In this document: piece by piece, positions 12,688 to 57,767 of the stretch
Layout of the letters: each line of letters begins with the position of its first letter
How positions within the stretch are numbered: position 1 is the first letter of the stretch
Assembly (NCBI GenBank): GCA_001784115.1
Contig: MFPD01000009.1
Coordinates: forward strand, 7,520-71,519
Origin: Candidatus Levybacteria bacterium RIFCSPLOWO2_02_FULL_37_18
GTDB lineage: Bacteria; Patescibacteriota; Microgenomatia; Levybacterales; UBA12049
Reading direction: 5' to 3'
Length of the DNA stretch: 64,000 nt
Translations under genes and position numbers: made by a program
The notes under the pieces: model-generated
Seen by the model: only the letters and a program-made list of their open reading frames with translations
Told to the model about the DNA's origin: nothing
The model's database searches: none

Positions 12688-12726
<39 letters not shown>

Positions 12727-40389: not shown

Positions 40390-40461
40390 TGCTACATTGC
40401 TCTATTGCTACATTGCTAAAAACTATCAAACAATTTAACAATCTAACAATGAAACAATTGG

Positions 40462-41544
40462 TTATTCTTTTATCAATTCTATCACACTCATTTGTTTTTT
40501 AATTTTTTGCGGAATAAATTCCTCATGGGTGGTTGTGAGAATTGTTTGTTGCTTACCCAGCAAATTCAAAACATGAATAATGTGCTCCTCATCCAATTCC
40601 GAAAATATATCATCAAGTAAAAAAAGGGGGGGTTGTTCTAAAGATTTTTCTACAAACAACAATTGCAACAGTTTTAACTGCAACACAACCAACCGCTGCT
40701 GGCCTCTTGAGCCGAATGTTTTGACTTCGTGAGTTGTTTGCCTGGAGTTGTTGTACAAACAAACCGTAAAATCATCTCTATGCGGTCCGACCAATGTCAC
40801 TCCTGCTCCCTCCTCTGCTTTTTTATATTGCTCCAGGCGATCATGCGAAATTATACTCTTGTCATACAATAAAGCACAATCAAACACTTCTTTTGTCTCG
40901 TTATTTAAAAATCGAATACATGCTTCTCTTTTTTTTGTAATAATCTGCCCGTTTTGAATAAGCAGATTATCCCAGTATTCAAACTGTTTTTCCTGATACT
41001 TACCGGTTTGCCTAACCAACTCAAGCAACGCATTTCTTTGTCTTAAAGCTTTTGCATACGAAATACCCGCTAATCTATAATCTCTATCTGTTTGTTCAAG
41101 TACGTTATCTAAAAACTCTCTTCTGATTCCCGGTGAACCGGAAATAATCTCTAAATCTAAAGGAGAAAACAAAACTGTTACTAAATTACCCGCAAAATCA
41201 ACTCGCCTTTTTGGAACTTTATTAACCAAAAACTTTTTTGACGGCTGCCTGCCTTCAAACTCCCCACTTGAAATAACTACTTCAAGGTTGATTTCATTAT
41301 TGGTCCCGATTGAATCGGGATTGGTACTAGCAGAGGCGCGTCCAACCTGTTTTTCAAACATAATCATGTCTGTATCTTTTTGCGTTTTAAAACTTTTTCC
41401 GGTGGATAATAAAAAAATAGCTTCAATAAGATTTGATTTACCGGATGTATTGGGACCGATGATAACTGTAGTATTCTCAGAAAAAGTGAACTCAGATTTC
41501 GAATAGCTTCTGAAGTTTTGGAGAAAAAGATGGCCAAGTATCAT
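40462..41544 (-). CDS. recF: DNA replication and repair protein RecF
   Basis: MILGHLFLQNFRSY start, Walker A GPNTSGKSNLIEAI, C-terminal LLDDIFSELD. The track ORF runs to 41580; the internal start at 41544 is preferred. Confidence 0.8.
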   Translation of the reverse strand: MILGHLFLQNFRSYSKSEFTFSENTTVIIGPNTSGKSNLIEAIFLLSTGKSFKTQKDTDMIMFEKQVGRASASTNPDSIGTNNEINLEVVISSGEFEGRQPSKKFLVNKVPKRRVDFAGNLVTVLFSPLDLEIISGSPGIRREFLDNVLEQTDRDYRLAGISYAKALRQRNALLELVRQTGKYQEKQFEYWDNLLIQNGQIITKKREACIRFLNNETKEVFDCALLYDKSIISHDRLEQYKKAEEGAGVTLVGPHRDDFTVCLYNNSRQTTHEVKTFGSRGQQRLVVLQLKLLQLLFVEKSLEQPPLFLLDDIFSELDEEHIIHVLNLLGKQQTILTTTHEEFIPQKIKKQMSVIELIKE

Positions 41545-41669
41545 GTAAATCCGAAATTCTAATATCGAAATTTGAAACAAATTCTAAATTCGAGTATCCA
41601 AATATTTAAAAATGTTTTGTATCTTTGTCATTTGATATTGTTTCGTATTTCGGATTTTGTGCTTCGAGT

Positions 41670-42377
41670 TTATTCAATGACCGTCCCTACAAACTCCTGA
41701 TCATGAAAGAACTTAAAGATATTATCCAAGTTTTTGCCATTTAAAACCGCTACTTTAAGTCCCAATTCCTGAGCTTTTTTTGCCGCAATCGGATCAAATG
41801 GCACATTCATGCCGGGATCCCATGTATCTCCTACAATCTTTCTAAAGTCAACCCAGGAAATTTTATCAATTGGTTTTGCGTCGGAAAACTCCCCTGGATC
41901 TTTATCAAAAACCTGGTCAATGTTGCTTAAATTTACGATCTTTTTAACTCCATAATCTTCTGCTAAGAGTACCGCGCAGTAATCTGTTGACCATCCCGGT
42001 TTCCATCCGGCAGCCACCACAACCTGCTCTGTAACTTTTCGGATAATTTCATAATGTTTTAAAATAAATGGATGTGCTATGTCTTTAAAAATAGTCCTGA
42101 CAAGCTGAGCGTTTAAACGGGTTGCATGAATCCCGAGCCAATCCAAGTCATCGGCAGAAAGCGCGTGTCCCAAAACTGTTTCTCCCGCATCTCTATATTT
42201 TCGAGCAGTTGATCCCCCTCCCACGACTAAAAAAAACTGACGTCCTTTATGGTACGTCAGTTGGTTTTTCACAAACCCGTTAAGGTTAATAAGAAAGTCT
42301 GTATCAATCCCGTCATTAGGAACAATTAAAGATCCTCCTACGGAAATAATAACCTTATCCGGATATGTGGTACCCAT
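41670..42377 (-). CDS. pyrH: UMP kinase (amino-acid-kinase family). The internal start MGTTYP is preferred over the track start at 42641.
   Basis: VIISVGGS and FFLVVGGGSTARKY motifs; ~235 aa from the internal start. Confidence 0.55.
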   Translation of the reverse strand: MGTTYPDKVIISVGGSLIVPNDGIDTDFLINLNGFVKNQLTYHKGRQFFLVVGGGSTARKYRDAGETVLGHALSADDLDWLGIHATRLNAQLVRTIFKDIAHPFILKHYEIIRKVTEQVVVAAGWKPGWSTDYCAVLLAEDYGVKKIVNLSNIDQVFDKDPGEFSDAKPIDKISWVDFRKIVGDTWDPGMNVPFDPIAAKKAQELGLKVAVLNGKNLDNIFKFFHDQEFVGTVIE

Positions 42378-42419
42378 TACGTGTAATAGTATCACACAAC
42401 CTGACAAAAAAACAACAAA

Positions 42420-43274
42420 ATGGTAATTTTGCATTTTGGCACGGTTTTGTGTATTATTGCCCTCGTGGTCGCCGAAACAAAGACTAATCAACCTCCTTCT
42501 GTGACAACTCAAGGCCATGAGATGCTTGCTGCATTCCGCAATGGAATTGCAGATGGTACAATAACAGTTCCACCAGGTCTTACACGTACAAAAGCAGAAT
42601 TTCTTATCTTCTCTCTTTCCCTGCTGCAAACACAAGAACATGGCTTATTGCCTCCAAAACCCAAACTCAGAAGTCCCAATGAATATTTGGAAGAAATATA
42701 CCGGCTTAGAATGGACTATATTGATAGTATGGAACGACCATACATGCATTCCCTTTCCACGAAAGCAGATCAAGCGATTGCTTTCTACGTGGAAAAATTT
42801 GGCGCGTTGCAAAAAGCAACAGCGGAAAAAATTCGCTCTGACCCGCAGGCAATTCACCAACCTTCGGGGACTATTACAATAACAATTCCGGCAGGCTCAG
42901 ATGAATCTCTTGATATCGAGCTTTCCACTGCGGAAAATAAAGACAAGGTTACCGTCTTCTATCACAAACGACAGAAAAATTACGCCGGTATTGTCGATCT
43001 AATTGATCACGTTTCCATAGACGCAGCAGGCTCAGCTTTTATAAAACGGGTATTTTGGGATATTCCGTCTGGAAGATTTATTCCAACAGCAGGATATCTT
43101 CCGCGAAATGATAACGACCACAGGGCTATGACGGAAAAAGAAGCTATGTATACAGAAAACCTTTTTCTTTTTTACCTTGCAAACAGGCAGAAAAATCCTT
43201 ATGCTCCAAGAAAAGATGATTGGGCTATTCCCGACACCTGGATCAAAAGCAGGAACTCCTCACGCCGATTTTGA
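42420..43274 (+). CDS. hypothetical signal-anchored secreted protein (284 aa)
   Basis: N-terminal hydrophobic segment, no motif; divergent from pyrH. Confidence 0.4.
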   Translation: MVILHFGTVLCIIALVVAETKTNQPPSVTTQGHEMLAAFRNGIADGTITVPPGLTRTKAEFLIFSLSLLQTQEHGLLPPKPKLRSPNEYLEEIYRLRMDYIDSMERPYMHSLSTKADQAIAFYVEKFGALQKATAEKIRSDPQAIHQPSGTITITIPAGSDESLDIELSTAENKDKVTVFYHKRQKNYAGIVDLIDHVSIDAAGSAFIKRVFWDIPSGRFIPTAGYLPRNDNDHRAMTEKEAMYTENLFLFYLANRQKNPYAPRKDDWAIPDTWIKSRNSSRRF

Positions 43275-44435
43275 TTCAATAAAATTTTTAATTTCCTTCT
43301 TAAACCGCTCTTTGGAGAATTTTTGAGCTTGTTTTTTGCATGCAGCAGTCATGCTTCGATGATTCGAATCATCGAAGTGTTTGATTGCGCTGATCAAACT
43401 TTCCTCCGTGAGCTCGTCAAAAAACACTCCTGTCTTATCCTCTACTACCGACTCCAAAAGCCCACCTCCTCTGTACGCAATCACAGGAGTACCCACACTC
43501 ATTGCTTCAACCGGCGTAATACCAAAATCTTCATCAGTCGCAGCAAAAATATACGCTTTCGAGTTTTTCATAAGCTCAAACTTCTCTTCATCCGTTACCT
43601 CCCCAAGAAACTCGATATTGTCCAAACGAAGTCGAGAAGTGTCATTCTGAACTTGTTTCAGAATCTGCTCGTATCCAGCGAATCCTTTTCCAAAAATTTT
43701 TAAAGGAACACCTAATTCGCCACAGGCTTTTATAATTAGGTCAATATGTTTCGGCCGCGCCAACCTACCGCCGGCGAGAAAATAGGCATTAGGTATTAGG
43801 TATTTCGTATTAGGTATTTTTTTGTTCTTTTCCTTAATACTTAATACTTTATACTTAATACTTTCCGTGTCGACTGGCGGATATATTACTGTCGAATCAC
43901 GGTTATAGAGCTTTTTTATCCGTGACGCTACCTCCCTCGAGTTGGCGATAAAATAATCTACATTTTCACTGCTCTCAACATCAACTCTCCGTAAAAATTG
44001 ATTAAGAACCGTTCCCAGTATGTTAAATAGCGGGTTTTTCTTCCATTCTCTGGCAGTTTCATATCCATATAAATACCTCGGCGGCGTATGACAATAGCAG
44101 GCCTGCAGAGCAAACTTCTTGTCAATCATATTAGGAGAATAAGCTCCTGTGGCTGAAACTATTACAACGTCATATTCGGAAAAGTCAAAGGATTTAAAAA
44201 GTAAGGGACTTAAGAGACGCAAGGGACTTATCAATTTGTGTCTAAATGGAACCCATCTTGCCCAACTCTCCCTTATCTCCCAATTCTTGAACCTTTCTCT
44301 ATGCGGCCCTAAAAACTGAGGTAAATATACAGTTGTGTAAACCGGCGCATCGGGATACAATTCATGCAATACCTCCAACACCCTTTCTGCGCCCCCGTAC
44401 TCTTTGATGTAGTCGTGAACTAAAGCTATTCTCAT
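43260..44435 (-). CDS. GT4-family glycosyltransferase with two in-frame repeat insertions
   Basis: EDFGITPVEAMSVGTPVIAYRGGG, the GT4 EX7E region. ESIKYKVLSIKEKNKKIPNTKYLIPNA is encoded by the TAGGTATT/AATACTTA palindrome at 43780-43870. QILKQVQND is encoded by 43641-43667. Start at MRIALVHDY. Confidence 0.7.
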   Translation of the reverse strand: MRIALVHDYIKEYGGAERVLEVLHELYPDAPVYTTVYLPQFLGPHRERFKNWEIRESWARWVPFRHKLISPLRLLSPLLFKSFDFSEYDVVIVSATGAYSPNMIDKKFALQACYCHTPPRYLYGYETAREWKKNPLFNILGTVLNQFLRRVDVESSENVDYFIANSREVASRIKKLYNRDSTVIYPPVDTESIKYKVLSIKEKNKKIPNTKYLIPNAYFLAGGRLARPKHIDLIIKACGELGVPLKIFGKGFAGYEQILKQVQNDTSRLRLDNIEFLGEVTDEEKFELMKNSKAYIFAATDEDFGITPVEAMSVGTPVIAYRGGGLLESVVEDKTGVFFDELTEESLISAIKHFDDSNHRSMTAACKKQAQKFSKERFKKEIKNFIESKSA

Positions 44436-45163
44436 AAACTGTTTACAAACTCTGTAACTTCTCTCGAAAGAACTTCGACATCTACCTTCGACCAATTATG
44501 ACCTCCGGGCATGATTTTGAGTTGCGCTTTTGGATTCAGTTTAACAATTTTCTCCCCCACTTCTTTTGGCACTAAAACATCATCTTTTCCTTCAAGCACA
44601 AGAATTGGCATTGAGAGCTTCTCTATTATTTTTGACAGATTTATTTTTAGCATAAACCGAACTTCTCTGAATAGTAAGTGAGGATAGAAAAGGATATGAA
44701 AGGTAAAATCAATTGCAATTCTTCTTAAAGACTTTACCGGGTACCTATTCCTACCTACCAAAAGAGTTAATACATGCCGAAACCATGTGATCAGCCAGAC
44801 AAAATTGGATCTTCCAAAATCAATTCCAATAGTATCGATTAGCACAAGCGCTTTTACTTTTTTTGGATAATAATAGGCAAGTCCGGCTGCCACAATCCCT
44901 GAAAACGAATGTCCTAAAACGACTGCGGAAGAAACCTTTTGGGCATCCATAAATTGAGCAAGGGTATCACTCGAAGCCTTTAAATCGTCAACGCCTTGTA
45001 TGTATGGAGCTAAAACATGAAAATGGCTGCTCAATTCTTGAATGCTGTCTTTGTAAGTAAACGGGCTCACTCCCCAACCATGAATAAACAAAAACGGCTC
45101 TTTGCTGGAATCACCGTACTCAGCGTACACAAACTTTCTCCCTTTGTACTCAATAGTTTTCAC
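44432..45163 (-). CDS. alpha/beta-hydrolase fold protein
   Basis: GHSFSG nucleophile elbow, 243 aa. Confidence 0.65.
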   Translation of the reverse strand: MKTIEYKGRKFVYAEYGDSSKEPFLFIHGWGVSPFTYKDSIQELSSHFHVLAPYIQGVDDLKASSDTLAQFMDAQKVSSAVVLGHSFSGIVAAGLAYYYPKKVKALVLIDTIGIDFGRSNFVWLITWFRHVLTLLVGRNRYPVKSLRRIAIDFTFHILFYPHLLFREVRFMLKINLSKIIEKLSMPILVLEGKDDVLVPKEVGEKIVKLNPKAQLKIMPGGHNWSKVDVEVLSREVTEFVNSL

Positions 45164-45240
45164 CTCGTTTGATTATACGTTCTTTGTTTTATTTTTACTA
45201 TTCGTAGAAACTGCAAAATATTGTTATTACTGAGCCTAAA

Positions 45241-46311
45241 TTACAATAACCCCAACTGTTTATCCTCCGAAGCCTTCGGCGAAGGAGGACTCTTCTCTTG
45301 TTTCTTGTTACTTGTCTCTTGCTGCTTTGAAACTCGTTTCAAAAGGCTATTGAATCCCAATTCCTCAAAAAACTCCTTTGCCTTATTTACGTCAAAACCT
45401 TTTATATTACACTTTTCTATATCTAACCGAATAGGGGCATCGCAGACAACAGTGGCTAGTTTTTTAGCTAAACTTGCTTGCTCTGTATCGGTTGCCAAAC
45501 GCTCTGAAATTTTGGGAGGCAGTTCTCCTAAGTTTTTATACAGATTTTCAAATGTTTTATATTTCTTAAGCAAATTACTTGCAGTCTTTGGCCCAATGCC
45601 AGCAACCCCAGGATAATTATCCGAAGCATCCCCTACTAGTGCTTTGTAATCTACAATCTGCGAAGGTTTAACTCCATACTTCTCCTCCACCTTCTGCTCA
45701 TCATACAAAACAGTATTTGTTAATCCTACTATTGGCGCTAACACTCGAACATGAGAGTTAACTAGTTGCAACAAATCCCGATCCCCTGAGACAATAATCA
45801 CCTCCAGAGGACTGAGGACAGAGGATGGAAAACTGATAGCAGATAAAACAGAAGAAACAGAATCTGTCTTATCTGTAATTTCTGTTTTTCCGCTGTCTGT
45901 CCTGCCTGCCGGCAGGCAGGTCTTCTGTATTCTGTATTCTGTATTCTGAAAAGCCTGAAAAGCTAATGTCCCAATCAAATCATCCGCCTCATACCCGTCT
46001 AATTCAAAAATCGAAACCCCCATTTTTTCTAAGGCATCGTGAACCAAAATAATCTGGGGCACAAAATCATCTGCCAGTTTTGGCCTGGTTGCGTGATACC
46101 CAACGTACATTTCTTGCCGAAATGTTGGTTTTGCCCTGTCAAAACACACGGCAATGTGCGCTGGTTTTAAGTCTTCGATAATTTTTAAAAACATGGAGAA
46201 AAACCCATAGACGGCGCTTACTACTTCTCCAGATGAACTGGTTAGAGGAGGCAAGGCATGATACGCCCTGTGAAGTATTGCGTTGCCGTCAATTAATATA
46301 AATCTTTCCAT
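45241..46311 (-). CDS. 5'-3' exonuclease (Pol I N-terminal / FEN-like domain only) with a ~130-bp in-frame CAGAATACAGAA / CCTGCCTGCCGGCAGGCAGG insertion
   Basis: MERFILIDGNAILHRAYHAL, ...GYEADDLIGTLA, VSGDRDLLQL. The insert NTEYRIQKTCLPAGRTDSGKTEITDKTDSVSSVLSAISFPSSVLSP is encoded by 45810-45960. The C-terminus ASEDKQLGLL derives from the hairpin cctccgaagccttcggcgaaggagg. Confidence 0.75.
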   Translation of the reverse strand: MERFILIDGNAILHRAYHALPPLTSSSGEVVSAVYGFFSMFLKIIEDLKPAHIAVCFDRAKPTFRQEMYVGYHATRPKLADDFVPQIILVHDALEKMGVSIFELDGYEADDLIGTLAFQAFQNTEYRIQKTCLPAGRTDSGKTEITDKTDSVSSVLSAISFPSSVLSPLEVIIVSGDRDLLQLVNSHVRVLAPIVGLTNTVLYDEQKVEEKYGVKPSQIVDYKALVGDASDNYPGVAGIGPKTASNLLKKYKTFENLYKNLGELPPKISERLATDTEQASLAKKLATVVCDAPIRLDIEKCNIKGFDVNKAKEFFEELGFNSLLKRVSKQQETSNKKQEKSPPSPKASEDKQLGLL

Positions 46312-46547
46312 AAAAGTAAAAGTAATTGTTAAACTGTTTCCGCCTGTCCCGTACATTCGCCCCTTAAGTAGTCGGCGAGGAAATTATATCAGATTTCATA
46401 ATCTATATTCCCCCGAGGAGATCAAAAACGAAATATTGAGCTTTTATCTTGTGGGATAATAGGTCGGATTGCCTTCTTGGATACCTTGGCTTGAATTATA
46501 AGGAGCTTCCTTTTTGATATGAAGATACTGCACCTGCCTGACATAAT

Positions 46548-47258
46548 TTAAAACATAGCTCCCAAAGTAAAGATTTGGTAAAAAATAGTGTATAAAGCTA
46601 CAAGTGCAATCAGGGCAATTTTAATATTTTTATGATTCATGGAAATCCAAAAACTCGGATACGAATCATAGATTCCAACAAAATATAAAGAAGATGCCAA
46701 GTTAAGTCGATGCCAGTCTCTAATAAGCTCGTACATACTTTCCGGATATTTGCCGCTAAATAGTACGACAAACGAACTTCCCGCTACTCCTATAAATGTT
46801 ACATATTCAATAATCGTCATGTAGAAATAAAACGGAATAAGGAGTATAAGCCTTGCAAATCCTCCAAAAAGAGGTACTGCAAATAATCTATTGGGAGTTT
46901 CTGGCTTTGGGATATCAAGGGTAAAATCTCCATTTGTAGAAAGGTCAAATCCCGGATATGTATTGGTAAGTCCGAAAAAATACAAAGAAATTTTCATGCT
47001 CATAACTTGAACACCCACAACAAGAGAATATGCAGTGTTCCAATATTTCCCTGAAAACAAAACTACAAAGGGATTTATGATAAATACCACAATGAGAAGC
47101 GCAATTCCCAAGAAAAAAAGCATAATGTATTGCGGAATGCAAATAAAAAACTTAATCAAAAACCCAAGTATTGGAATTGCGTAGATGCGATTGGGGTTTT
47201 GAATATAAACAACAGAGAACGAAGGATACAGATCAGAAGGAAGCTTCATTAATTTCAT
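46548..47258 (-). CDS. polytopic membrane protein with duplicated FSGKY(P/W) motifs (DUF4389-like)
   Basis: Two internal repeats, VVLFSGKYWNTAYSLVVG and VVLFSGKYPESMYELIRD. Confidence 0.45.
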   Translation of the reverse strand: MKLMKLPSDLYPSFSVVYIQNPNRIYAIPILGFLIKFFICIPQYIMLFFLGIALLIVVFIINPFVVLFSGKYWNTAYSLVVGVQVMSMKISLYFFGLTNTYPGFDLSTNGDFTLDIPKPETPNRLFAVPLFGGFARLILLIPFYFYMTIIEYVTFIGVAGSSFVVLFSGKYPESMYELIRDWHRLNLASSLYFVGIYDSYPSFWISMNHKNIKIALIALVALYTIFYQIFTLGAMF

Positions 47259-47373
47259 TAATTTTAATTAAAAATTATTCTTCTCCATCTGTCAAGATGT
47301 AAATCTCGAGTCTGGTGCAAAACTCGTGGCGATGACAGATGTATGTCAGGAGTGTAAACAGTTATGTCGAGCA

Positions 47374-48009
47374 TTACGAAGATAGCTTGCGGTATACAGA
47401 AGCTGTGGCGACAATGCTTAAAGGAATCGTAATTAAAACTCCTACTCCAAATGCCAAAGCAGAAAACATTACAATTACCCCTAATAATAGAAAAAACAAA
47501 AATAAGTTCCACTTAACCCCTTGTGTAATTTTTGAGCTTATTTCAAACGCGCCAAAAGCTGTGGCTTTTTTCTCAACTATTGCAAATGGAAAAAATCTAA
47601 ATTGAATCGCCCAGATAATTCCGGGAATAATAAACAAGATCGTTCCAACCGAAACAATAGAAACATATAGAAAAGTCCCGATTAAAAACGAAAATAATAA
47701 AGCATAATGGGCATACAAATCAGAAAACTTTGGCTTTTTATCTTCAACTAATTTTAATGCAATCTTAATACTCCCGAGTAAAATAACCAATTGCACAACC
47801 CACGCTAAAACAAAAACAAGAAACGACAAAAATGGAGCTGTATCGTTAAAGGATTTAGCTAAGGCTTGTGAAACAAAGTAAATAACAAACACAATCCCCC
47901 AAACGCCTGAAATAAGCAGGAAATTTTCTTTTACCAAATTCCAACCGGTTTTAATTGCTTCTTGTTTAGAAAACGAGCGGGAAGATTGCAACACGAAATA
48001 ATACCTCAC
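47374..48009 (-). CDS. hypothetical polytopic membrane protein (211 aa)
   Basis: 5-6 TM helices. Confidence 0.45.
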   Translation of the reverse strand: MRYYFVLQSSRSFSKQEAIKTGWNLVKENFLLISGVWGIVFVIYFVSQALAKSFNDTAPFLSFLVFVLAWVVQLVILLGSIKIALKLVEDKKPKFSDLYAHYALLFSFLIGTFLYVSIVSVGTILFIIPGIIWAIQFRFFPFAIVEKKATAFGAFEISSKITQGVKWNLFLFFLLLGVIVMFSALAFGVGVLITIPLSIVATASVYRKLSS

Positions 48010-48107
48010 TATCAGTATTCCACAAAAAAATGGAGTTTGTCAAATGGTTTATGTCATTGTGAATGGCCTTTAGCCCTATGGCAATCTTTTATTCATCTTA
48101 GATTGCT

Positions 48108-49997
48108 TCACTTAGTTCGCAATGACGGTGAGCGGGAATTCTGTGCTTTTGCAAGAGCAAGAGCTTTTCCTTCCTTTGGCCCGATGAGTTTTATAAAGTC
48201 ATCGGATTCTATAGTTTCTCTTTTCAATAGTTCGGCGGCTAGTAAATCAAGTTTATCTCGAAGCTTTGATAAAACCGACGCTGCATTTTTATAACACATA
48301 TCAGTAATTTTTTTCACTTGCCCGTCGATTTTTGCTGCCATTTCGTCAGAAACATGCTGTTGTTCGTAATACATTCGTCTGTCAGATGCTTCCAAATTTA
48401 AAGGTCCAAGCTCACTCATACCGTATTCGACTACCATCATTCTCGCAACTTGAGAAGCTTTGGCAATATCATCGGATGCGCCTGTTGTCATTTCGGCAAA
48501 CACAAGTTGCTCTGCTGCTCTTCCGCCAAGCATAACAGCTACCTGCTCGAGTAGGTGCGTTTTAGTCTCGTGTACTCTTTCGATTTGCTCCATCATGGTA
48601 TGACCCAACGAAAGCCCCCTGCTCACAATTGAAATGCGGTGAACAGGATCAACATGAGGCATGTACCACGAAACCAACGCGTGTCCTGCCTCGTGATACG
48701 CAGTCATTTTTCTGTCCGCGTCTGATTGTAACCTCTTTTTTTCCGGACCTAATTTGACCTTTGTCGCTGCTTCTTCCAAATCTCTCATGTCGATAAACTT
48801 CTTATTGAGTCTCGCTGCTAAAATTGCAGCTTCGTTTAACATGTTTTCTAAATCAGCTCCCGAAAACCCAACAGTCCTTTTTGCAGCTTTCTCCCAATCA
48901 ACATCCGGGGCAAATGGCTTCCCTTGGGCATGAATATTCAAGATTGCTTTTCTTCCGACAACATCCGGCATATCCAAAGCAATTCTCCTGTCAAACCGTC
49001 CCGGTCGAATAAGTGCAGGATCGAGGACGTCAGGACGGTTTGTAGCTGCCATTACTATAAGTTGTTCGTTGGGGGTAAATCCATCCATTTCAACAAGAAT
49101 CTGGTTAAGCGTTTGTTCGCGCTCGTCATGTCCACCCATTAAGCCTACTCCGCGCTGTCTGCCGATTGCGTCAATTTCGTCGATAAAAATAATCGCTGGT
49201 TGAGCCTTTTTAGCGGTAGAAAAGAGGTCGCGAACCCTTGAGGCCCCGACACCTACCAACATTTCCATAAATTCAGATCCAGCCATTGAAAAAAATGTAA
49301 CTCCGGCTTCTCCTGCCGTACTGCGGGCCAAAAGGGTTTTTCCTGTTCCAGATGGGCCAATCATTAAAACTCCTTTTGGGGTTCGTGCTCCCATGGCTTT
49401 GTATTTTGCCGGATTTTTAAGAAAATCAACAATTTCTGTCAGCTCCTGTTTTGCCTCATCCACTCCTGCCACATCTGCAAACGTAACTTTTGGGCTGTCC
49501 TTGCTAAATAATTTTGCCCTCGACTGGCCAAAACTAAAAATATTTTCTTGCGCACCTCTGGCCTGCCGAAAAATAAAATAAAAAAACGCAATCATCAAAA
49601 CAACCGGCAAAATTGAAGATATAAGATTAATCCAATTCGTAACGCCTGATTCGTCTTTTACCACAACTTTGGTTTTTTCTAAAGATACTCCCGCGTCTTT
49701 AAAGAGTTGGTAGACATTAGAACCTACTTCTTTATTTGTATGAAGTGTTGCTCCCCGCTTGGTAGTAACGCTAATTTTGTTATCAACAATAGTAATCTGG
49801 GAAATCTCATCTTTTTTTACACTTTCGATTATTTCGGAAATCGGCACTGTTTTTCGATCTTCTAAAGGAGCGCTTAATCCAACCAAAAGAAAAAGGCTAA
49901 AGAGGAGTAAAAAACCGTATAATAAAATATTTTTCCAGGAGAGATTAAATTTAAACTTAACTATTTTTCGCTTATGCTTTTTCCCATTCGTAGCCAT
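48108..49997 (-). CDS. ftsH: ATP-dependent zinc metalloprotease FtsH. Its last ~7 codons are supplied by a half GTCAT element.
   Basis: Walker [15 protein letters not shown] region, HEAGHAL zinc site. The C-terminus SPSLRTK is encoded by tcaccgtcattgcgaactaag (48099-48128). Confidence 0.9.
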
Positions 49998-50008
49998 AAT
50001 GTATTAAA

Positions 50009-50045
50009 TGTCATTCTGAGTCATTCTGAACTTGATTCAGAATCT
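50009..50045. repeat. GTCAT-family hairpin doublet (tgtcattctgagtcattctgaacttgattcagaatc)
   Basis: seen in sequence. Confidence 0.6.
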
Positions 50046-50144
50046 AATTTTTGAATTTTGAGTTAAAATTGAGTATAGCACAACTTATATTCATTTCCAA
50101 GCATTTTTATCAAAACGTAACAGTTAACTCTTCTAACACGGTCT

Positions 50145-50228
50145 TGTCATTGCGACCCCGAGTGAATCAAGGGGGAAGCAATCTCACAAGATCGCCACGG
50201 TCGCCTGAGGCGACCTCGCGATGACAGT
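50145..50228. repeat. GTCAT-family palindromic element (tgtcattgcgacc...cggtcgcctgaggcgacc...tcgcgatgaca)
   Basis: Inverted termini and a GC hairpin identical to the copy at 6122-6201. Confidence 0.7.
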
Positions 50229-50309
50229 TTTATGTCAGAACCCTAAACAAAATTAAATACCCAAACTGACATTGCTTTTTTCTCTCAAATCTGATACTAT
50301 TATAGGCCT

Positions 50310-51170
50310 ATGCGAGAAGGACGACGAGCGGTTTTAACAGTTTTTACAGGTTTAAGTACTATTGCTTGTGGTATTTCCCCAGATACGCCAATGGGCGTTG
50401 CGCCTTATCCAACCTCAACAAGATCAATCCCGAGTGAACTCTCACCTGTACCCTCTGATCGAGAAGTTATTCTAAGCTACGTCTCAACACTTTCAATTCA
50501 AAAAGATCCTACCGAAGTAGGCCGTTGGGCAAATATTAGGTCTTTAAATCCTCCAATCCGAAAACAGGAAATAACTGATAATGATAAATCACTTGCCGAA
50601 AGACGTTTAGTTGCCGTCCTAAACGAAATGAACAGATCAAATATCAAGCCATTTAGAGACGCGCATGATGTTCTTACCTCTCACCGGAATAAAGATGCCT
50701 CTATCGGAGTATATAAGAATCTTTCGTCTGTATTGAAAACAGAAGATGCGTACCAAATGGTTGCTCTACCTTTGTATAAAAATGATTCCGTAGAAATTCA
50801 TATTGGATTAGACACTAAACATATCCTCGAAACAGATTTATTAGTACTTGCAACCGAGATTGTTCATGAAGTAACCCATCTTCAAGAATATCTTGGCTTC
50901 CTTACCGCTCTCGATCCTTCTCACGGTCCATTTGAGAAATTTATAGAACTTAAAGGAATAGAAACAAATGACCAGATTCGATTTGAAGGTGAACTTGTTG
51001 CATATAAAATTCAGGCCGAATCTTACATGCATGCAATTGCTCAAGGACATACTATTACTTCTCGGTTTGACGATGAATTAGCCGCTACCCTCATTCGCGC
51101 AAACGGAGACATACATACCCCTGCCTATCAAGAACTAATAAAAAAACTTTCTCCCGAAAGCCGAATATAA
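50310..51170 (+). CDS. hypothetical secreted or lipoprotein-like protein with an HExxH motif
   Basis: MREGRRAVLTVFTGLSTIACG signal/lipobox-like N-terminus. TEIVHEVTHLQEY. The ATG sits 8 nt after TATTAT, i.e. leaderless context. Confidence 0.45.
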   Translation: MREGRRAVLTVFTGLSTIACGISPDTPMGVAPYPTSTRSIPSELSPVPSDREVILSYVSTLSIQKDPTEVGRWANIRSLNPPIRKQEITDNDKSLAERRLVAVLNEMNRSNIKPFRDAHDVLTSHRNKDASIGVYKNLSSVLKTEDAYQMVALPLYKNDSVEIHIGLDTKHILETDLLVLATEIVHEVTHLQEYLGFLTALDPSHGPFEKFIELKGIETNDQIRFEGELVAYKIQAESYMHAIAQGHTITSRFDDELAATLIRANGDIHTPAYQELIKKLSPESRI

Positions 51171-51198
51171 CCCCTTTTTCTCTCGTACTTCTCTCATT

Positions 51199-52302
51199 TT
51201 GGAGTATGAAAAACTCAAACCTGATATAATAACTGCCTTAAAAGAAAAAGCTATGGCAGACCGAAAAGAAAACCCTCAGTTTACCCACAAGGTCCCATCT
51301 CCGAAAAGACCGGAAAATACACCCATGTATCTTCAATTTCTAGAATTGTACGCTCGATCGAGACAGCCCAAAGACGGAACACTGCAGGAACACATCAAAA
51401 AAGACCTAAATAGAATTGCTTCATCAGCTCCCAATCAAGCACTTACAACATATATTAAAGGCGATGTTGTATTTGATGCATCGCTAAATGGAAAACCGCC
51501 TAATCCAGAAACGCAAGAAAATCTTAAAAGACAATGCTCTATTAATACCCCACATGGACTCCTCATTTATAATCACAACACAAAAGAAGGAACTTCTCCA
51601 TTGTTACCAAAGAAGAAGAATACATTCTCTCTGTCAGAATATCAAGATAAACTATTTATGGTTTTTATAAGACATGCTCTTCTTGCAGAAGCTACGCAAA
51701 ACCCTCGTCATCTCATTATTGAGGAGGAGGAACTTAACGAAGCAATAGATGATGAAGAATCAGAAAAACCTCCCAATACAAAAGTTTTTGTGGCGCAAAT
51801 TAGAGAAAGATTAGGAGATCTGGGTAAAAAAGGTGATAAACGTTTTAAACACAAGCTTATCCAAAGAATACCAAACACAAGAAATTATTTTTTTCCAACA
51901 GAAGAATTCCCGGAGATTCCTTTTGATGAAGATTCTATGCTCACTTGTCCTACTCTTTTAGGTGAAGTAAAACTTGACCCTTTAACCAACAGCGCGTTTT
52001 CTCCTGCCAAGCCAGGAATCCCCATTCCTCTTTCTCCAAAAGAAGTAGAGATTATTCTTGATCTATTTACAGATCCGGGATATCACAAATTTGCTAACAA
52101 AACTAAAAAAGAAAAATCAGTAATATCGGTTCGGGTAAACAAATTGAACAAAAAATTTGGACCAAAGAAGATTAAGATTATAGAGAGTAAAAAAGGGCTG
52201 GGCTGGCGGTTTGTCCCGCCTAAAAAAGAAGCAGAAAAAGATTCACAATCAGATGTTGTATTCCTGACTTCTGTCACTAACCACACTCTAGCCTCAAATT
52301 AA
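51199..52302 (+). CDS. hypothetical protein with a C-terminal OmpR/PhoB-type winged-helix DNA-binding domain and no receiver domain
   Basis: LSPKEVEIILDLFTDPGYHKF...VISVRVNKLNKKFGPKKIKIIESKKGLGWRFV, compared with the trans_reg_C consensus LTPKEFxLL...VDVHIRRLRKKL...IxTVRGvGYRF. The acidic N-terminal part has no match. Confidence 0.5.
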   Translation: MEYEKLKPDIITALKEKAMADRKENPQFTHKVPSPKRPENTPMYLQFLELYARSRQPKDGTLQEHIKKDLNRIASSAPNQALTTYIKGDVVFDASLNGKPPNPETQENLKRQCSINTPHGLLIYNHNTKEGTSPLLPKKKNTFSLSEYQDKLFMVFIRHALLAEATQNPRHLIIEEEELNEAIDDEESEKPPNTKVFVAQIRERLGDLGKKGDKRFKHKLIQRIPNTRNYFFPTEEFPEIPFDEDSMLTCPTLLGEVKLDPLTNSAFSPAKPGIPIPLSPKEVEIILDLFTDPGYHKFANKTKKEKSVISVRVNKLNKKFGPKKIKIIESKKGLGWRFVPPKKEAEKDSQSDVVFLTSVTNHTLASN

Positions 52303-52557
52303 AGGTTTTTGGGACACTAAATGATACAAGTCGGGAATTATTTGTAATTCCTTAATACTTCTTTAATACTTCTTTGTCAAACCGTGTCTACCTGACACGA
52401 TCAAACCAACCCCATCTTTTCTTTCACTTATCTCATTGTCTACTAACAAAAACCATGATACGCTTTTTGTATGACTTTTAATATATCTGAGACCCTTAAT
52501 TCTAACTGAAAGGTGTATATGATCCACTAGCTCACCTACAAAAATATTTCAGAAGAA

Positions 52558-52677
52558 CTATGATTGACCTAACGCAAACTCTTGCTCAAGCACAAATCGC
52601 CTTCGCTTTGGCAGTAATCGCTCTTGCGGTTGTCTATTACGTTTTTGCTAAAAAACCCACACGCACCAAGCGCTAGA
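52558..52677 (+). CDS. possible 39-aa single-TM peptide
   Basis: MIDLTQTLAQAQIAFALAVIALAVVYYVFAKKPTRTKR; no clear RBS. Confidence 0.25.
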
Positions 52678-52689
52678 TTAGTCCCATCT

Positions 52690-52830
52690 TTTCGTAACAG
52701 GTCACAGTTCTAACATAAAACTGTCATTCTGAGACTGAAAGCAGAAGAATCTTTTACCGAATAGATCCTTTACTACGCTCAGGATGACGAGATCGTGTCG
52801 GAAGCGTGAACAGTTACAGTTCTTAGACAA
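52690..52830. repeat. ~140-bp GTCAT-containing repeat unit (direct-repeat partner of 54765-54995)
   Basis: atcacagttctaacataaaactgtcattctgagactgaaagcagaagaatcttttaccgaatagatcctttactacgctcaggatgacgagatcgtgtcggaagcgtgaacagttac. Confidence 0.7.
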
Positions 52831-52869
52831 ACTTTAAAAATAAATTCAGACTTGTTATAATATAAGCCT

Positions 52870-53766
52870 ATGTCTGGAGAAGAGCGCCAAAGAAAAGCTC
52901 ATTCAAGAGAATTTGCTCGCCGACCTCTTATTGTTGGAGGGGCAGTGGGCGCAGGAGCCTTAGGTACGCTCGCCACTCATTTTTGGGAAACTCGACCCAA
53001 ATCAGACGAACAAGTAATTCAAGACTATATTGATCATCTTGGACTAAAACCTAATACGCAAGAACAAACCCTATGGCAACGAACTCATCAAAATATCCAT
53101 TTTACAAATCAACCATTAACTTCTTCTGCTTTAAATAAAGGGACCGACAACGTACTTAAAGTTATACATGTCATTAAATCATCTAATATTGAAGACTTTT
53201 CAGAGTTGGCAACATTTTTTACAAATTATAAATCTGCTGGGCAACTATCTGCTGTAGTTCATCCAAGAGTTGATGCATTAGTTCCAGCGCGTACAGGTTC
53301 CGGTTTTAATCCATCAACAAACAAGACCGAATGGCAAATTCAAGTTTCTCCGCACCATATTCTTACAGATACAAACGCTTTAACGGTAGCAGTTAAACTA
53401 ACCGAACAATTAGATTTTGTCCAAAGTCTTTCTGCCTACGAACAGGGTCTTGTTAATCTTCACACTCCATTCGATAGATTTCAAGAAGTGAGAAAAAAAC
53501 TTGATAACGATCAAGAACTAACAAGATTACATGCCAAGGGACTTGGGAGGGCAATTCATGCCTATATTTACGCTTATGCTTTTTTGGGAAATATGCGCAG
53601 TGAAATAAAAATAGATATGAAAAAACATGCTGCAGAATTTATTAAACGTGGCGCTGATGAAACTTCTCCGTCATGGATTTTTTATTGGCTTTCGTACAGG
53701 AAAGAAATGCTTGCAAAAATCCCTCAACCGGCTCCCGGAAATCCTGGAAGAACCTCACAACTATAA
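52870..53766 (+). CDS. hypothetical protein with a twin-arginine-like N-terminus (RRPLIVGGAVGAGALG)
   Basis: 298 aa. The ATG follows TATAAT + 8 nt, the same start context as the 50310 gene. The same TTTTCTCTCGTACTTC(T/C)CTCATT block follows the stop. Confidence 0.45.
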   Translation: MSGEERQRKAHSREFARRPLIVGGAVGAGALGTLATHFWETRPKSDEQVIQDYIDHLGLKPNTQEQTLWQRTHQNIHFTNQPLTSSALNKGTDNVLKVIHVIKSSNIEDFSELATFFTNYKSAGQLSAVVHPRVDALVPARTGSGFNPSTNKTEWQIQVSPHHILTDTNALTVAVKLTEQLDFVQSLSAYEQGLVNLHTPFDRFQEVRKKLDNDQELTRLHAKGLGRAIHAYIYAYAFLGNMRSEIKIDMKKHAAEFIKRGADETSPSWIFYWLSYRKEMLAKIPQPAPGNPGRTSQL

Positions 53767-54738
53767 TCCCATTTTCTCTCGTACTTCCCTCATTGTCTCT
53801 TCTGCTAACTGCCTGCAAGCGTTGTTTGAACTTTCGATAACTTCATCTACTAATTTTGTATTTGCTTCGAATTCTTTTCGTTTTTCGGCAAAAGGCTTAA
53901 GTTCTTTAAAAATAGCATTTGCAAGAACCTCTTTTAACTCAGAGTACCTAATTTTTTTGTCCTTATAATCCTGCATAAATTTACTATACACTTCTTTACC
54001 TGCGAACAACCGCAGAAGCGAAAACAAATTCGCAACTCCACCACTCTCTGGGATATCTCCTCCAACTTCCCCACTATCCGTTGGCGCACTTGCTAATCGC
54101 TTTTGAATAGTTGCTAAATCATCTGTTAAGTTGATGAATGAACCCTCAATAGATTTACTCATCTTTCCAGTTCCAGAAAGTGAGGGAACATACTCTCCGG
54201 GTGTTTTGAACCGAACAGGTTCCGGGAATGTATCACCGAACATAGAGTTAAATTTTCTGGCAATTTCCCGCATTACTTCCAAATGCGGTTTCTGGTCTAT
54301 TCCTACGGGAACGAGTTCTCCTTTATATAAAAGCACGTCTGCTGCCATTAAAACCGGGTAATACAACAAACCCATATTCACATACTTTGGATACTGGGCT
54401 TTTTTGTCTTTATACGTTGGCAAATCTTCAAGACGCGAAACCGGATAAATGGTTGAGAGTAAATATGCAAGCTCTGTGTGTTGTGGAACTCGCGACTGAA
54501 TCTCGAGTAAGCACTTCTTTGGATCCAAACCTGCTGCCAGATAATCAAGAACAATATTTCGAATTGACACCCCAAGGGTGTCAGGCTCGTACGGAACAGT
54601 AATGGTGTGCAAATCAACAACAGAAAACACACAATCATATTTGTCTTGCAACTCAAGCATCCCTTTTACAGCACCCATGTAATTTCCCAAATGCAATCTC
54701 CCCGTCGCCCGTATTCCAGAATAAACTCTTTTTTTCAT
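53761..54738 (-). CDS. trpS: tryptophan--tRNA ligase
   Basis: Class I HIGH-type motif HLGNYMG and KMSKS. Confidence 0.85.
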   Translation of the reverse strand: MKKRVYSGIRATGRLHLGNYMGAVKGMLELQDKYDCVFSVVDLHTITVPYEPDTLGVSIRNIVLDYLAAGLDPKKCLLEIQSRVPQHTELAYLLSTIYPVSRLEDLPTYKDKKAQYPKYVNMGLLYYPVLMAADVLLYKGELVPVGIDQKPHLEVMREIARKFNSMFGDTFPEPVRFKTPGEYVPSLSGTGKMSKSIEGSFINLTDDLATIQKRLASAPTDSGEVGGDIPESGGVANLFSLLRLFAGKEVYSKFMQDYKDKKIRYSELKEVLANAIFKELKPFAEKRKEFEANTKLVDEVIESSNNACRQLAEETMREVREKMGL

Positions 54739-54764
54739 AACTCTTGATATTGTATCATAGTAAC

Positions 54765-54995
54765 AGATCACAGTTCTAACATAAAACTGTCATTCTGAGA
54801 CTGGAAACAGAAGAGTCTTTTACCGAATAGATCCTTTACTACGCCGAGTCTGACTCGGCTACGCTCAGGATGACGAGATCGTGTCGGAAGCGTGAACAGT
54901 TACAACATTGAAGTTATTGTTCGAGGCTACAAGCCGAGAACTACAAACACTGGAAACTTCTCGCTACGCCACGTCTGACGTGGCTACGCTCGAAG
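54765..54995. repeat. GTCAT-family repeat unit, a second copy of 52690-52830 with an extra nested hairpin (ccgagtctgactcgg) and a 3' extension carrying ctacgccacgtctgacgtggctacgc
   Basis: About 95% identity over the shared ~120 bp, and a 17-bp hairpin insertion. Confidence 0.7.
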
Positions 54996-56339: not shown

Positions 56340-57767
56340 TTACCACACCCACTCTTTTTTCATCTTACTAAACTCTCCTTCCATAATTGCTTCTCTGATT
56401 TTTTTAACCAGATGCACAATAAAATACATATTATGATAACTTGCCAACCGATATGCGAGGAGTTCGTTTGCTTTGAATACATGGTTAACATAGCCTCGCG
56501 TGAACTGCTTACACACCTTACACTCGCAGTCTTTAGAAAGCGGTTGGTTACTTCTTACATAGATACTTCTATTTATATCGAGCCGAAACCTACCTTTTGC
56601 TTCTGATTCCCATGGAGGGACAAACACAATGCCGTACCGGCCAAAGCGCGTTGGAATCACACAATCAAACGTATCCATCCCACATTCTATTGCCGAAAAA
56701 ATATCATCAATTTCTCCAATACCTAATAAATGCCTGGGTTTTTCTTCGGGAAGAAACGGATGCACCCAGGAAAGAACGTCCCGCATTTCTTTTTTCGTTT
56801 CTCCAACCGAAACTCCCCCAATTGCAATTCCATCAAACGGAAGCGAACTGATAAACTTCGCCGACTCTTCCCGAAAATCTTTGCATACACCACCTTGAAC
56901 AATACCGTAAAGCGCTTGCTCTCTTCCCGTGTCATGCCGAACTTGTTTCGGCATCTCCTCACCGGCACTAGTAGATACCGAAACGCCTTGCCTGCTGACA
57001 GGCAGGAGTTCAGGATGACAGCGATAGAATTCAGCTAGTGATCTCTCCGCCCACTTATGCGTCCGCTCCATCGCCTCTTTTGTGTATTCACGTGTAGAAG
57101 GATACGGCGCGCATTCATCAAAACACAAAATAATATCTGCTCCTAATTTTTTTTGGATTTGAATAGATAGTTCTGGAGTAAGCTCGTGTAATGAACCATC
57201 AATATGAGATCTAAAAACAACTTTGTCGTTGGTAATCTTAACAAGAGAAGGATTTTTATCTATAGAGGATTCCTGATCATTCCCAGGAGAACTGAAAGTC
57301 GGCCTTGTATTTTTCTGAGTATTTTCATCCGGTGGCCGACTTTCACTTAGTGAGGACGGGAAAAAGTTTATAATTTTTTCAAAAGGTTGCCGAACGTCTC
57401 CTGAGGCATGCGTCAGGAATCCGCCGCCCCTTGCAGCAATTCTTTTTGCCAACGAAAAGACCTGAAACCCACCGCTGTCTGTTATAGTCGGCCCATACCA
57501 ATTCATAAACTTTCCCAAACCTCCGAATTCCTGTACCACGTCTTCTCCAGGACGCAAATGCAAATGATATGTATTGCCAAAGAGTAATTCAACACCAATT
57601 TCTCTAAGTTCGTCAGGGCTTAATCCCTTTACTGTTGCCTGTGTCCCAACCGCAACAAAAGCAGGAGTCTCAATATCACCATGAGGAGTATGAATCTGAC
57701 CAACCCGCGCTTTTGTTTTAGAATCTTTTGATATAACTTTAAATGAAAATGAACTATTTTTCTTCAT
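56340..57767 (-). CDS. tgt: queuine tRNA-ribosyltransferase with two long in-frame palindromic insertions
   Basis: DSGGFQVFSL; Zn site CxCxxC...H (CECKVCKQFTRGYVNH). The ~75-aa insert ...PSSLSESRPPDENTQKNTRPTFSSPGN is encoded by the palindrome GAAAGTCGGCC...GGCCGACTTTC at 57295-57345. VSRQGVSVSTSAG is encoded by CCTTGCCTGCTGACAGGCAGG at 56993-57013. Confidence 0.8.
   Translation of the reverse strand: MKKNSSFSFKVISKDSKTKARVGQIHTPHGDIETPAFVAVGTQATVKGLSPDELREIGVELLFGNTYHLHLRPGEDVVQEFGGLGKFMNWYGPTITDSGGFQVFSLAKRIAARGGGFLTHASGDVRQPFEKIINFFPSSLSESRPPDENTQKNTRPTFSSPGNDQESSIDKNPSLVKITNDKVVFRSHIDGSLHELTPELSIQIQKKLGADIILCFDECAPYPSTREYTKEAMERTHKWAERSLAEFYRCHPELLPVSRQGVSVSTSAGEEMPKQVRHDTGREQALYGIVQGGVCKDFREESAKFISSLPFDGIAIGGVSVGETKKEMRDVLSWVHPFLPEEKPRHLLGIGEIDDIFSAIECGMDTFDCVIPTRFGRYGIVFVPPWESEAKGRFRLDINRSIYVRSNQPLSKDCECKVCKQFTRGYVNHVFKANELLAYRLASYHNMYFIVHLVKKIREAIMEGEFSKMKKEWVW

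Follow-up and report, generated by a model that had tools for sequence, protein, structure and literature searches.

The three accessory genes that lie between two essential genes, ftsH and trpS, in an uncultured member of the Levybacteria have probably accumulated by serial stacking, a process in which alternative alleles of one gene slot would have been added one after another, each with its own promoter, by one-sided homologous plus illegitimate recombination. The DNA analyzed, here called the window, is a stretch of 64,000 nucleotides from Candidatus Levybacteria bacterium RIFCSPLOWO2_02_FULL_37_18 (GenBank assembly GCA_001784115.1, contig MFPD01000009.1, positions 7,520 to 71,519 of the forward strand), and positions given below for the window count from its first letter. 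The block consists of P1 and P3, two members of a family of putative metallopeptidases (the P family), of a gene between them whose product has two winged helices, and of an open reading frame (ORF) of 38 residues. All of these lie on the plus strand between ftsH and trpS, which are both on the minus strand, and the direction of transcription of every cargo gene is toward trpS. The stacking would be recorded by short copies of the 3' end of trpS. The 3' end of each cargo gene is met by such a tail: by the real one in the case of P3, by an old scar in the case of the winged-helix gene, and by a young scar in the case of P1.

Copies of the trpS 3' end within the block

In a preliminary description of the region, the block of sequence shared downstream of P1 and P3 was taken to be a terminator module. 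The block itself is real. The sequence TTTTCTCTCGTACTTCYCTCATT is found exactly twice in the 64 kb, at 51176-51198 and 53772-53794 (0 expected from 100 shuffles), and it does not belong to a general repeat family, a possibility that had been raised for the shared flanks; in a repeat search, the similarity of the two copies reaches 33 nt at 91% identity. However, the copy that follows P3 is simply the antisense of the C-terminal codons of trpS, the last 11 codons of which occupy 53762-53794. The reverse complement of this segment reads ...ETMREVREKMGL-stop, which is the normal C-terminus of tryptophanyl-tRNA synthetase (TrpRS) in all relatives examined, and the stop codons of P3 and trpS overlap. 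The second copy, which follows P1 (scar 1), is evidently a dead trpS-tail fragment. Its match to trpS ends exactly at the inner end of the scar, and its closest match is the window's own trpS tail.

A further copy (scar 2) was found by the repeat search as 52405-52437 (70% identity), about 100 nt downstream of the winged-helix gene. This copy is degenerate, and its ending is one residue longer, as is typical of the trpS tails of other Levybacteria. It is closer to the tail of another species, that of locus L057 (32 of 35 positions), than to the resident tail (27 of 34), and its alignment score is 29 versus a maximum of 16 for shuffled sequence. In addition, shortly after the winged-helix gene, at 52348-52376, there are two tandem copies of an 11-nt sequence, TAATACTTCTT. 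They are similar to the ACTTCTTTCATT portion of trpS tails and may be what is left of an even older scar.

A scan for promoters and terminators gave no intrinsic terminator on the plus strand of 49900-54000, and the three trpS-tail copies have no hairpin or U-tract in common (folding z-scores of -1.35, +0.70, and +0.46). The downstream block was consequently rejected as a terminator, since it is composed of a trpS coding end and a scar of it and lacks these common elements.

The trpS-ftsH slot in other Levybacteria

A scan for TrpRS in one genome per species yielded 58 loci, about 45 of them from Levybacteria; the loci of relatives are cited by L numbers. In the approximately 45 Levybacteria species, ftsH comes after trpS in the same direction, and the distance from the end of trpS to the start of ftsH ranges from 41 bp to 5.6 kb, with 3.76 kb in the window. 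In those relatives whose loci have ftsH, the gene is 58-85% identical (tblastn best segments). The cargo of the slot is species-specific and includes genes for MutY/EndoIII-like proteins, EEP-nuclease-like proteins, AbiEii-like nucleotidyltransferases, and an SPFH protein as well as P-family and winged-helix genes. A P-family gene occupies the slot in L018 and L049, and a winged-helix gene of the window's type occupies it in L010 and, as two tandem paralogs, in L054. The single-allele states can also be seen: the order is ftsH-P-trpS in L071 and ftsH-winged-helix-trpS in L010. P adjoins trpS in L018, L049, L072, and L074 as well. In L071, ftsH, P, and trpS are followed by a complete trp operon, and the arrangement is similar in L072 and L074; in these three loci, distant P members recovered by a profile search are convergent to trpS. 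These distant members beside trpS argue that the P gene is a long-standing trpS neighbor in Levybacteria.

To survey the slot for scars, each gap exceeding 250 nt was compared by alignment with the trpS tail of every species; shuffled gaps, which served as controls, gave maximum scores of 12-18. Scores of 27 and 29 were obtained for the window, clear scars were present in three more species (L074, L019, and L057), and a candidate in a fourth (L054) was borderline (Table 1). The L019 scar adjoins the 3' end of a helix-turn-helix gene on the opposite strand. Taken together, these scars appear to be a recurrent by-product of cargo stacking in the trpS-ftsH slot, and several of them look donor-derived, being closer to a foreign trpS allele than to the resident one.

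Table 1. Features of the block, of its surroundings, and of trpS-tail scars in other species (positions in the window unless a locus is named)
Feature	Position	Strand	Remarks
ftsH	48108-49997	-	Left border of the hot spot, conserved; Pfam FtsH_ext/AAA/Peptidase_M41
Hairpin repeats	50010-50241	.	GTCATTCTGA doublet, 50010-50043; 80-nt GTCATTGCGA...TCGCGATGAC, 50147-50226; inverted partial copy of the 120-nt element, 50221-50241
P1 start module	50292-50311	+	Extended -10 box TGATACTAT (50292-50300), 9-nt spacer, palindrome ATAGGCCTAT overlapping ATG
P1	50310-51170	+	286 aa
Scar 1	51166-51198	-	33-nt copy of the trpS 3' end; reverse complement MREVREKKGLY; 91% identical to the real tail
Winged-helix ORF	51199-52302	+	367 aa from TTG
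Extended -10 box of the winged-helix gene	51222-51230	+	TGATATAAT; 22 nt before ATG 51253; same box at the L010 ortholog
Scar 2	52399-52441	-	Degenerate trpS 3' end; reverse complement MR*VKEKMGLV*
Small hydrophobic ORF	52560-52676	+	38 aa
120-nt MITE-like element	52694-52814	+	Contains GTCATTCTGA...TCAGGATGAC hairpin
P3 start module	52833-52871	+	TTTAAA, 17-nt spacer, TG-n-TATAAT (ends 52861), 8-nt spacer ATAAGCCT, ATG
P3	52870-53766	+	298 aa; stop overlaps trpS stop
trpS	53761-54738	-	Right border, conserved; PF00579
120-nt element, second copy	54760-54900	+	20-nt internal duplication; upstream of trpS
120-nt element, third copy	13627-13774		Inverted
L074 scar			Score 27; 51 nt; 39/51 identical to the L071 tail
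L019 scar			Score 26; 34 nt; 30/34 versus the window's tail allele; own trpS tail matches poorly
L057 scar			Score 22; 31 nt
L054 candidate scar	1586-1623 (L054)		Score 18, borderline; exactly between its two winged-helix paralogs

Some further observations concern the two bordering genes. The trpS gene stands at the end of a trp operon gene set in L071 (2497-8496) and L072 (1795-6969), with trpA, trpB, trpF, and trpC in both and trpD and trpG also in L071. Bacteria of the candidate phyla radiation (CPR) are generally without amino acid biosynthesis, and trp operon genes are unusual there. Locus L008 (ENA ERZ27254763), which corresponds to window positions 40310-54730, is identical to the window up to about 54250 and then falls to about 77% nucleotide identity inside trpS, the 5' half of its trpS being closest to that of other species (81% for L026 and L023). 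Either recombination in nature, with its breakpoint within trpS, or a chimeric assembly accounts for this contig. Finally, FtsH gives tblastn matches in two separate blocks, with more than 1 kb between them, in L013, L019, L056, and L074 (for example, 10809-11669 and 12912-13970 in L019), which suggests an insertion or intervening element inside ftsH.

The stacking model

In the model proposed here, relatives would carry alternative single-gene alleles of the slot, with either a P-family gene or a winged-helix gene beside trpS. Donor DNA would pair homologously at one flank, ftsH or trpS, and would be joined illegitimately at the other. The incoming allele would thereby be added without replacing the old one, and a short trpS-tail fragment would be left between the genes. 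Survival would be limited to short scars, since recombination between longer trpS repeats would remove the cargo. If the donor DNA is anchored at ftsH, the newest gene would come to lie beside ftsH, so that P1 would have arrived last and the winged-helix gene earlier, with P3 as the resident; of the two versions, this one fits best with the decay of the scars. In the alternative version, anchoring at trpS would reverse the order of insertion. Furthermore, since a neutral flank cannot persist at 91% identity while P1 and P3 have diverged to 22%, the scar beside P1 would derive from an event much later than the split of P1 and P3.

Illegitimate recombination that is facilitated by homology has been proposed for the arrays of effector-immunity genes of the T6SS (type VI secretion system) in Vibrio cholerae (Kirchberger et al. 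2017; PMC5361080), and studies cited in that paper are given as having shown the process experimentally in Streptococcus, Pseudomonas, and Acinetobacter. The displacement of rhs C-termini, with stacked rhs 3' ends, is cited there from Jackson et al. (2009). As in the T6SS and rhs arrays, a variable slot here lies by a conserved anchor gene, incoming alleles join the existing ones instead of replacing them, older genes are shifted along, the displaced 3' ends of genes stay as markers, and no dedicated recombinase is needed. Unlike in those arrays, the remnant derives from the tail of an essential gene, encoding an aminoacyl-tRNA synthetase on the opposite strand, rather than from the end of a variable gene, the cargo does not consist of toxin/immunity genes, the host is a CPR bacterium, and the process is read from sequence alone. 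The process itself, in which genes stack up at a hot spot and remnants mark the additions, is of a known kind; the place is new.

P1, P3, and their family

Both P ORFs, reported at about 290 residues in the preliminary description, lie where it placed them (Table 1), and its view of their products as divergent paralogs holds. P1 and P3 are 22% identical (BLASTP E=1e-9), and P1 and P3 both match the family member of L018 (1.6e-15 and 7.6e-22, respectively). In the lists of family hits of the two, each places the other low (37th of 67 and 44th of 66); thus, they are not recent local duplicates, and they can be regarded as distant paralogs. A word-indexed protein search returned a single nonself relative in the case of P1, a single one in that of the winged-helix protein, and none in that of P3. 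The P family came into view only in an exhaustive profile search, with 144 cluster representatives when E<=1e-3 was required and 59 when E<=1e-10 was; almost all of them are 230-350 residues long.

In an alignment of 68 members, H186, E187, H190, and E228 (P1 numbering) are at least 90% conserved, and the same is true of W73, M107, S110, N112, and A181. The HEVTH motif of P1 (residues 186-190), in which a possible metalloprotease had been seen from the start, is a genuine signature of the family: of the 68 members, 65 have HExxH. Glu228, which lies 38 residues downstream of the motif in a low-confidence part of the AlphaFold2 (AF2) model, would be the third zinc ligand. This AF2 model of P1 has a predicted local distance difference test (pLDDT) value of 59 overall and of 80-93 in the core (residues 70-200), where a three-stranded sheet directly precedes the long helix with HEVTH, an arrangement as in zincins. 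In P3, TEQLD stands in place of HExxH, the downstream Glu is lost, and an N-terminal membrane anchor is predicted. Given the loss of both the motif and the Glu, P3 is probably a catalytically dead paralog on another branch of the family, about 5% of whose members, P3 included, are without HExxH.

The N-terminus of P1 contains RR, a hydrophobic stretch, and a lipobox-like STIAC. When simple pattern and hydropathy tests were applied to the 68 members, an N-terminal hydrophobic segment was found in 55, RR or KR before it in 33, and a lipobox-like Cys in 13; matches to Pfam TAT_signal were weak only and came from 3 members (best E 0.019). P1 and its family gave no match in Pfam, NCBIfam, PDB sequences, PADLOC, or PHROG, and Foldseek against the PDB was blank, so that neither a described peptidase family nor a zincin fold could be assigned from Pfam, NCBIfam, the PDB, or Foldseek-PDB. 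A literature search on Levybacteria and metalloprotease found nothing. The P family thus appears to be an undescribed family of membrane-anchored or secreted proteins of about 300 residues. Because the HExxH motif and the Glu are conserved, the predicted arrangement is zincin-like, and no described family was matched, P1 is called a putative extracytoplasmic gluzincin-like zinc metallopeptidase, either of the lipoprotein type or membrane-anchored. Like the gluzincins (thermolysin-like and M48/M56-like), P1 has its HExxH in a predicted long helix after a small beta-sheet, and the family combines the conserved downstream Glu with a predicted extracytoplasmic location. Unlike them, the family has neither sequence matches to the peptidases of Pfam, NCBIfam, and the PDB nor a structural match, and a small share of its members lacks the motif.

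The double winged-helix protein

The ORF at 51199-52302 had been described as ending in an OmpR/PhoB-type winged helix. The domain is confirmed, but the chain has two of them in tandem rather than one (about residues 140-235 and 245-340 of the ORF); the roughly 120 residues N-terminal to them are unassigned. The gene probably starts at ATG 51253, which is M19 of the 367-residue ORF opening at TTG 51199 and would give a gene of 51253-52302, because this codon aligns with the start of a 50%-identical ortholog, P0002 (MAGRKE...), and because TGATATAAT stands ahead of both genes.

By itself, the window protein matches Pfam Trans_reg_C (PF00486) with E=0.0034 and 17.9 bits, versus a curated cutoff of 26.2 bits. 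The known family consists of four proteins, namely the window protein, that of L010, and two paralogs of L054, and all of them match Trans_reg_C (best E 4e-15). When a profile of this family was compared with the PDB, two separate regions matched OmpR/PhoB-type DNA-binding domains (PhoP and PhoB, E=2e-5). Furthermore, domain 1 alone matches PhoB and KdpE (E=8e-5), and the two domains align to each other across the recognition helix and the wing (hhalign E=2e-5). In the AF2 model, which has a mean pLDDT of only 45, the order expected of such a fold, an N-terminal beta-sheet, then three helices, then a beta-hairpin wing, seems to occur twice (E112-144/H147-205/E219 and E248-267/H280-320/E326-339).

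The absence of a receiver domain and of a nearby sensor kinase, both reported earlier, was also found here. There is no Response_reg match at E<=1 in the protein or its family, and the Pfam records for the genes within 10 kb on either side list no HisKA, HATPase_c, or Response_reg domain; consequently, the protein is not a response regulator. It would instead bind DNA constitutively, one chain occupying two adjacent DNA sites, like an OmpR dimer, without control by phosphorylation. The protein is like the OmpR/PhoB family in that its profile matches PhoB, PhoP, KdpE, and ToxR, including the recognition helix and the wing motif G-x-G-Y/W-x-F/L. It is unlike that family in having two domains in tandem in one chain, no receiver or kinase, and the unassigned N-terminus, and the window protein by itself is under the Pfam cutoff. 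ToxR and CadC are members of the OmpR/PhoB family that lack a receiver and have a transmembrane/periplasmic sensor part; unlike ToxR and CadC, the winged-helix protein has no transmembrane or periplasmic sensor part. A scan of viral contigs with the family alignment gave no relative. As a separate observation, the two L054 paralogs (271 and 195 aa), both with double winged helices, lie in tandem at 745-2213 of that locus, between trpS and ftsH.

Gene starts and the start palindrome

The start contexts of P1 (ctgatactatTATAGGCCTATG) and P3 (cttgttataatATAAGCCTATG) had been considered a duplicated module. Both contexts are present, with P1 starting as ...TGATACTAT-TATAGGCCT-ATG and P3 as ...TGTTATAAT-ATAAGCCT-ATG, but the layout is family-wide and also occurs at roughly one in four window genes. 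In all eight P-family genes that were examined (P1, P3, L011, L018, L049, L070, L071, and L074), 8-9 nt separate the end of an extended -10 box from the ATG. Of the 46 window genes, 12 have a -10-like hexamer at a distance of 5-10 nt ahead of the start, an enrichment over other positions. A distance of 8-9 nt between box and ATG predicts leaderless or nearly leaderless mRNAs, and the mRNAs of P1 and P3 are probably leaderless.

The spacer ATARGCCT is limited to the subgroup of P1, P3, L011, and L018, and it is not a general repeat. Together with the AT of the start codon it makes up the palindrome ATAGGCCTAT, which is perfect at P1 and present as a near-copy at P3 and which could be an operator or a discriminator-like element. 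When one mismatch is allowed, this 10-nt sequence is found in the window at the P1 start, at the P3 start, and at 19734 only, that is, 3 times versus 1.7 expected, which is not above chance. The palindrome is kept in L018, where the gap contains no winged-helix gene, and this argues against a dedicated pairing with the winged-helix protein.

Competing explanations

Several points weigh against serial stacking as presented here. The history is read from scars and not from observed recombination, and the order of insertion can be read both ways, as anchored at ftsH or at trpS. Scar 1 is 91% identical to the live tail while P1 and P3 are 22% identical, which requires either a recent event or selection on the scar. 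In addition, parts of the accompanying picture of the genes are open to objection. The P-family fold is without a match, given the pLDDT of 59, the blank Foldseek-PDB search, and the lack of Pfam and PDB sequence matches, and its peptidase activity is consequently argued from motif conservation only; the winged-helix family has four known members and a poor AF2 model (pLDDT 45); and leaderless transcription is deduced from the spacing of -10 box and ATG only.

It was originally postulated that the block arose by a local tandem duplication, in which promoter, gene, and terminator were copied as one module and then diverged in place, with the flanks retained as regulatory signals. This is now considered unlikely, even though P1 and P3 are paralogous, have the ATARGCCTATG start in common, and have stops in the same register to the trpS tail or scar (ATATAA-CCCC versus CTATAA-TCCC). 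The block consists of trpS coding sequence and lacks a common hairpin or U-tract, the unrelated winged-helix gene has a trpS scar too, and the same start module is found in other species (L011 and L018). Moreover, a neutral flank of 33 nt cannot hold 91% identity while the genes drop to 22%, and the mutual ranks of P1 and P3 are low. The idea of a duplicated expression module around P1 and P3 thus finds no support as a local duplication. A similarly doubtful proposal is that the trpS tail serves as an attachment site, at which cassettes integrate site-specifically, with a recombinase acting in trans and the core duplicated each time. Genomic islands integrate at tRNA genes, and cassettes do so in integrons; a direct repeat of the same gene end after each cargo gene, the single orientation of the cargo, and the recurrence of the pattern in several species would all be in keeping with such a site. 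However, although the live tail, scar 1, and the scar of L019 contain the 16-nt core GAAGTACGAGAGAAAA in identical form, this core is missing from scar 2 and from the L074 and L057 scars, and the scars vary in length (31-51 nt) and in their end points. There is no recombinase Pfam domain on record within 10 kb on either side and no conserved hairpin on folding; with the differing scar ends, these are the features by which an integron-like cassette would have been recognized. In other species, cargo can be found on both strands, with genes of an ordinary housekeeping type among it, and the winged-helix family was not found in viral contigs.

Two functional readings have even less in their favor. 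In one, the genes form a single circuit, either because the winged-helix protein regulates P1 and P3 via the start palindrome or because a membrane metallopeptidase controls the regulator by proteolysis, in the way that BlaR1 controls BlaI. This is quite improbable. P is present without a winged-helix gene in L018 and L071, with none seen in the sequenced parts of L049, L072, and L074, and the winged-helix gene is present without P in L010 and L054; given this inconsistent co-occurrence of the two families, the BlaR1/BlaI-like pairing was not retained. In favor of the circuit, the genes are adjacent and in one orientation, and P1 has ATAGGCCTAT between its -10 box and its ATG, with a near-copy at P3 and one other match in the 64 kb. 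L011 and L018 have also conserved this palindrome at their P-family genes, but its retention in L018, with no winged-helix gene in the gap, speaks against the circuit. The predicted topology places the catalytic domain of P outside the cell, away from a cytoplasmic regulator, and OmpR-type domains usually read direct repeats, not palindromes. The other reading, to which only a slight chance is given, is that the trpS-tail repeats are themselves functional, either as cassette-stacking recombination sites served by a recombinase encoded elsewhere or as sequences kept for coupling the cargo to trpS by convergent transcription. If so, this would explain why one 16-nt core recurs in the live tail, in scar 1, and in the scar of L019 and why the overlap of the P and trpS stops is conserved, and the slot would represent a CPR cassette-stacking system with the end of an essential gene as its docking point. 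The serial stacking of slot alleles remains the preferred explanation.

Other features of the block and the window

A Candidatus Levybacteria metagenome-assembled genome, GCA_001782445.1, encodes the products of P1, the winged-helix gene, and P3 with identical sequences on its contig MFOP01000009.1, and near-identical contigs are present in many further metagenome assemblies. The G+C content at third codon positions is 0.23-0.27 in the three island genes versus 0.35-0.37 in ftsH and trpS, which fits an accessory status. No further copies of either the P or the winged-helix family are present in the window or in the 8-kb flanks of relatives, and a search for remnants of the ftsH 5' end within the island gave one 18-nt match only, which was judged to be chance. 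PADLOC, PHROGs, and NCBIfam had no match for any of the four island products; with these searches and the scan of viral contigs with the winged-helix alignment blank, an origin from a defense system or a phage was dropped.

The small ORF between scar 2 and P3 had been listed as a 39-residue transmembrane peptide. The ORF is there and is hydrophobic, but it encodes 38 residues, and its status as a gene is unsupported. It has been seen only within the same species, and its Pfam matches are weak and subthreshold; for these reasons it is not counted as an established gene.

GTCAT elements precede P1 (50010-50043 and 50147-50226) and P3 (52723-52788), as the preliminary description had stated. However, the GTCAT motif occurs 21 times in the window versus 4 expected, and ten full GTCAT...ATGAC hairpins are spread across it. 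Thus, these elements are a general repeat family, the very possibility that the preliminary description had set against its own interpretation of the flanks. One hairpin is contained in a 120-nt element with two further copies in the window (Table 1). In a sister strain (L004) that is otherwise 99.99% identical, exactly 112 nt (52704-52815) are absent, and the indel is bordered on both sides by ACAGTTCT, which indicates that the element was recently mobile or was deleted through ACAGTTCT microhomology. The element has the terminal inverted repeats, the multiple copies, and the presence/absence between strains with a flanking repeat that characterize a miniature inverted-repeat transposable element (MITE).

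Some GTCAT...ATGAC hairpins lie inside intact long ORFs, at 56931-57019 (within the TGT ORF, 56340-57767), 32418-32486, and 39760-39867. In the 475-residue TGT, the repeat encodes about residues 250-279 (CHPELLPVSRQGVSVSTSAGEEMPKQVRHD), and the TGT proteins of relatives align with 43-83 gap positions; this looks like the in-frame insertion of a palindromic repeat into coding genes. In-frame insertion into genes has been described for the Rickettsia palindromic elements. The GTCAT family is like MITEs and repetitive extragenic palindromic (REP)-like repeats, such as these Rickettsia elements, in its short hairpins, its GTCAT...ATGAC terminal inverted repeats, its many and mostly intergenic copies, the one copy present or absent between strains with an 8-nt flanking repeat, and the copies apparently in frame within genes; it is unlike them in that no transposase partner has been identified. 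A search of the literature for the sequence string of the GTCATTGCGA repeat gave unrelated primer hits only, and the family was not found described there.

Elsewhere in the window, a 5S rRNA gene lies at 7118-7233 and a tRNA-Ala gene at 13363-13437. The 23S rRNA gene (7412-13209) is split into two matches and contains two group I introns, at 9470-9703 and 10236-10532, which fits a CPR bacterium.

Implications

The proteins of the block are of interest in their own right. The P family, with at least 144 clusters at 50% identity, would consist of surface-exposed putative metallopeptidases and thus offers candidates for cell-surface or host interaction, and its genes usually adjoin trpS in the Levybacteria examined. 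The presence of two OmpR-type winged helices in one chain is a rare architecture. For annotation, the block carries a warning: a short repeat beside a convergent gene can be the coding end of the neighbor and not a regulatory signal. The importance of the main finding is modest. If the stacking model is correct, the region between trpS and ftsH is a readable record of how accessory genes accumulate at one hot spot in an uncultured CPR lineage, with remnants of the tail of an essential gene marking the additions. Some of these scars point to foreign donors, which supports frequent exchange of DNA among related episymbiotic bacteria without the machinery of mobile elements.

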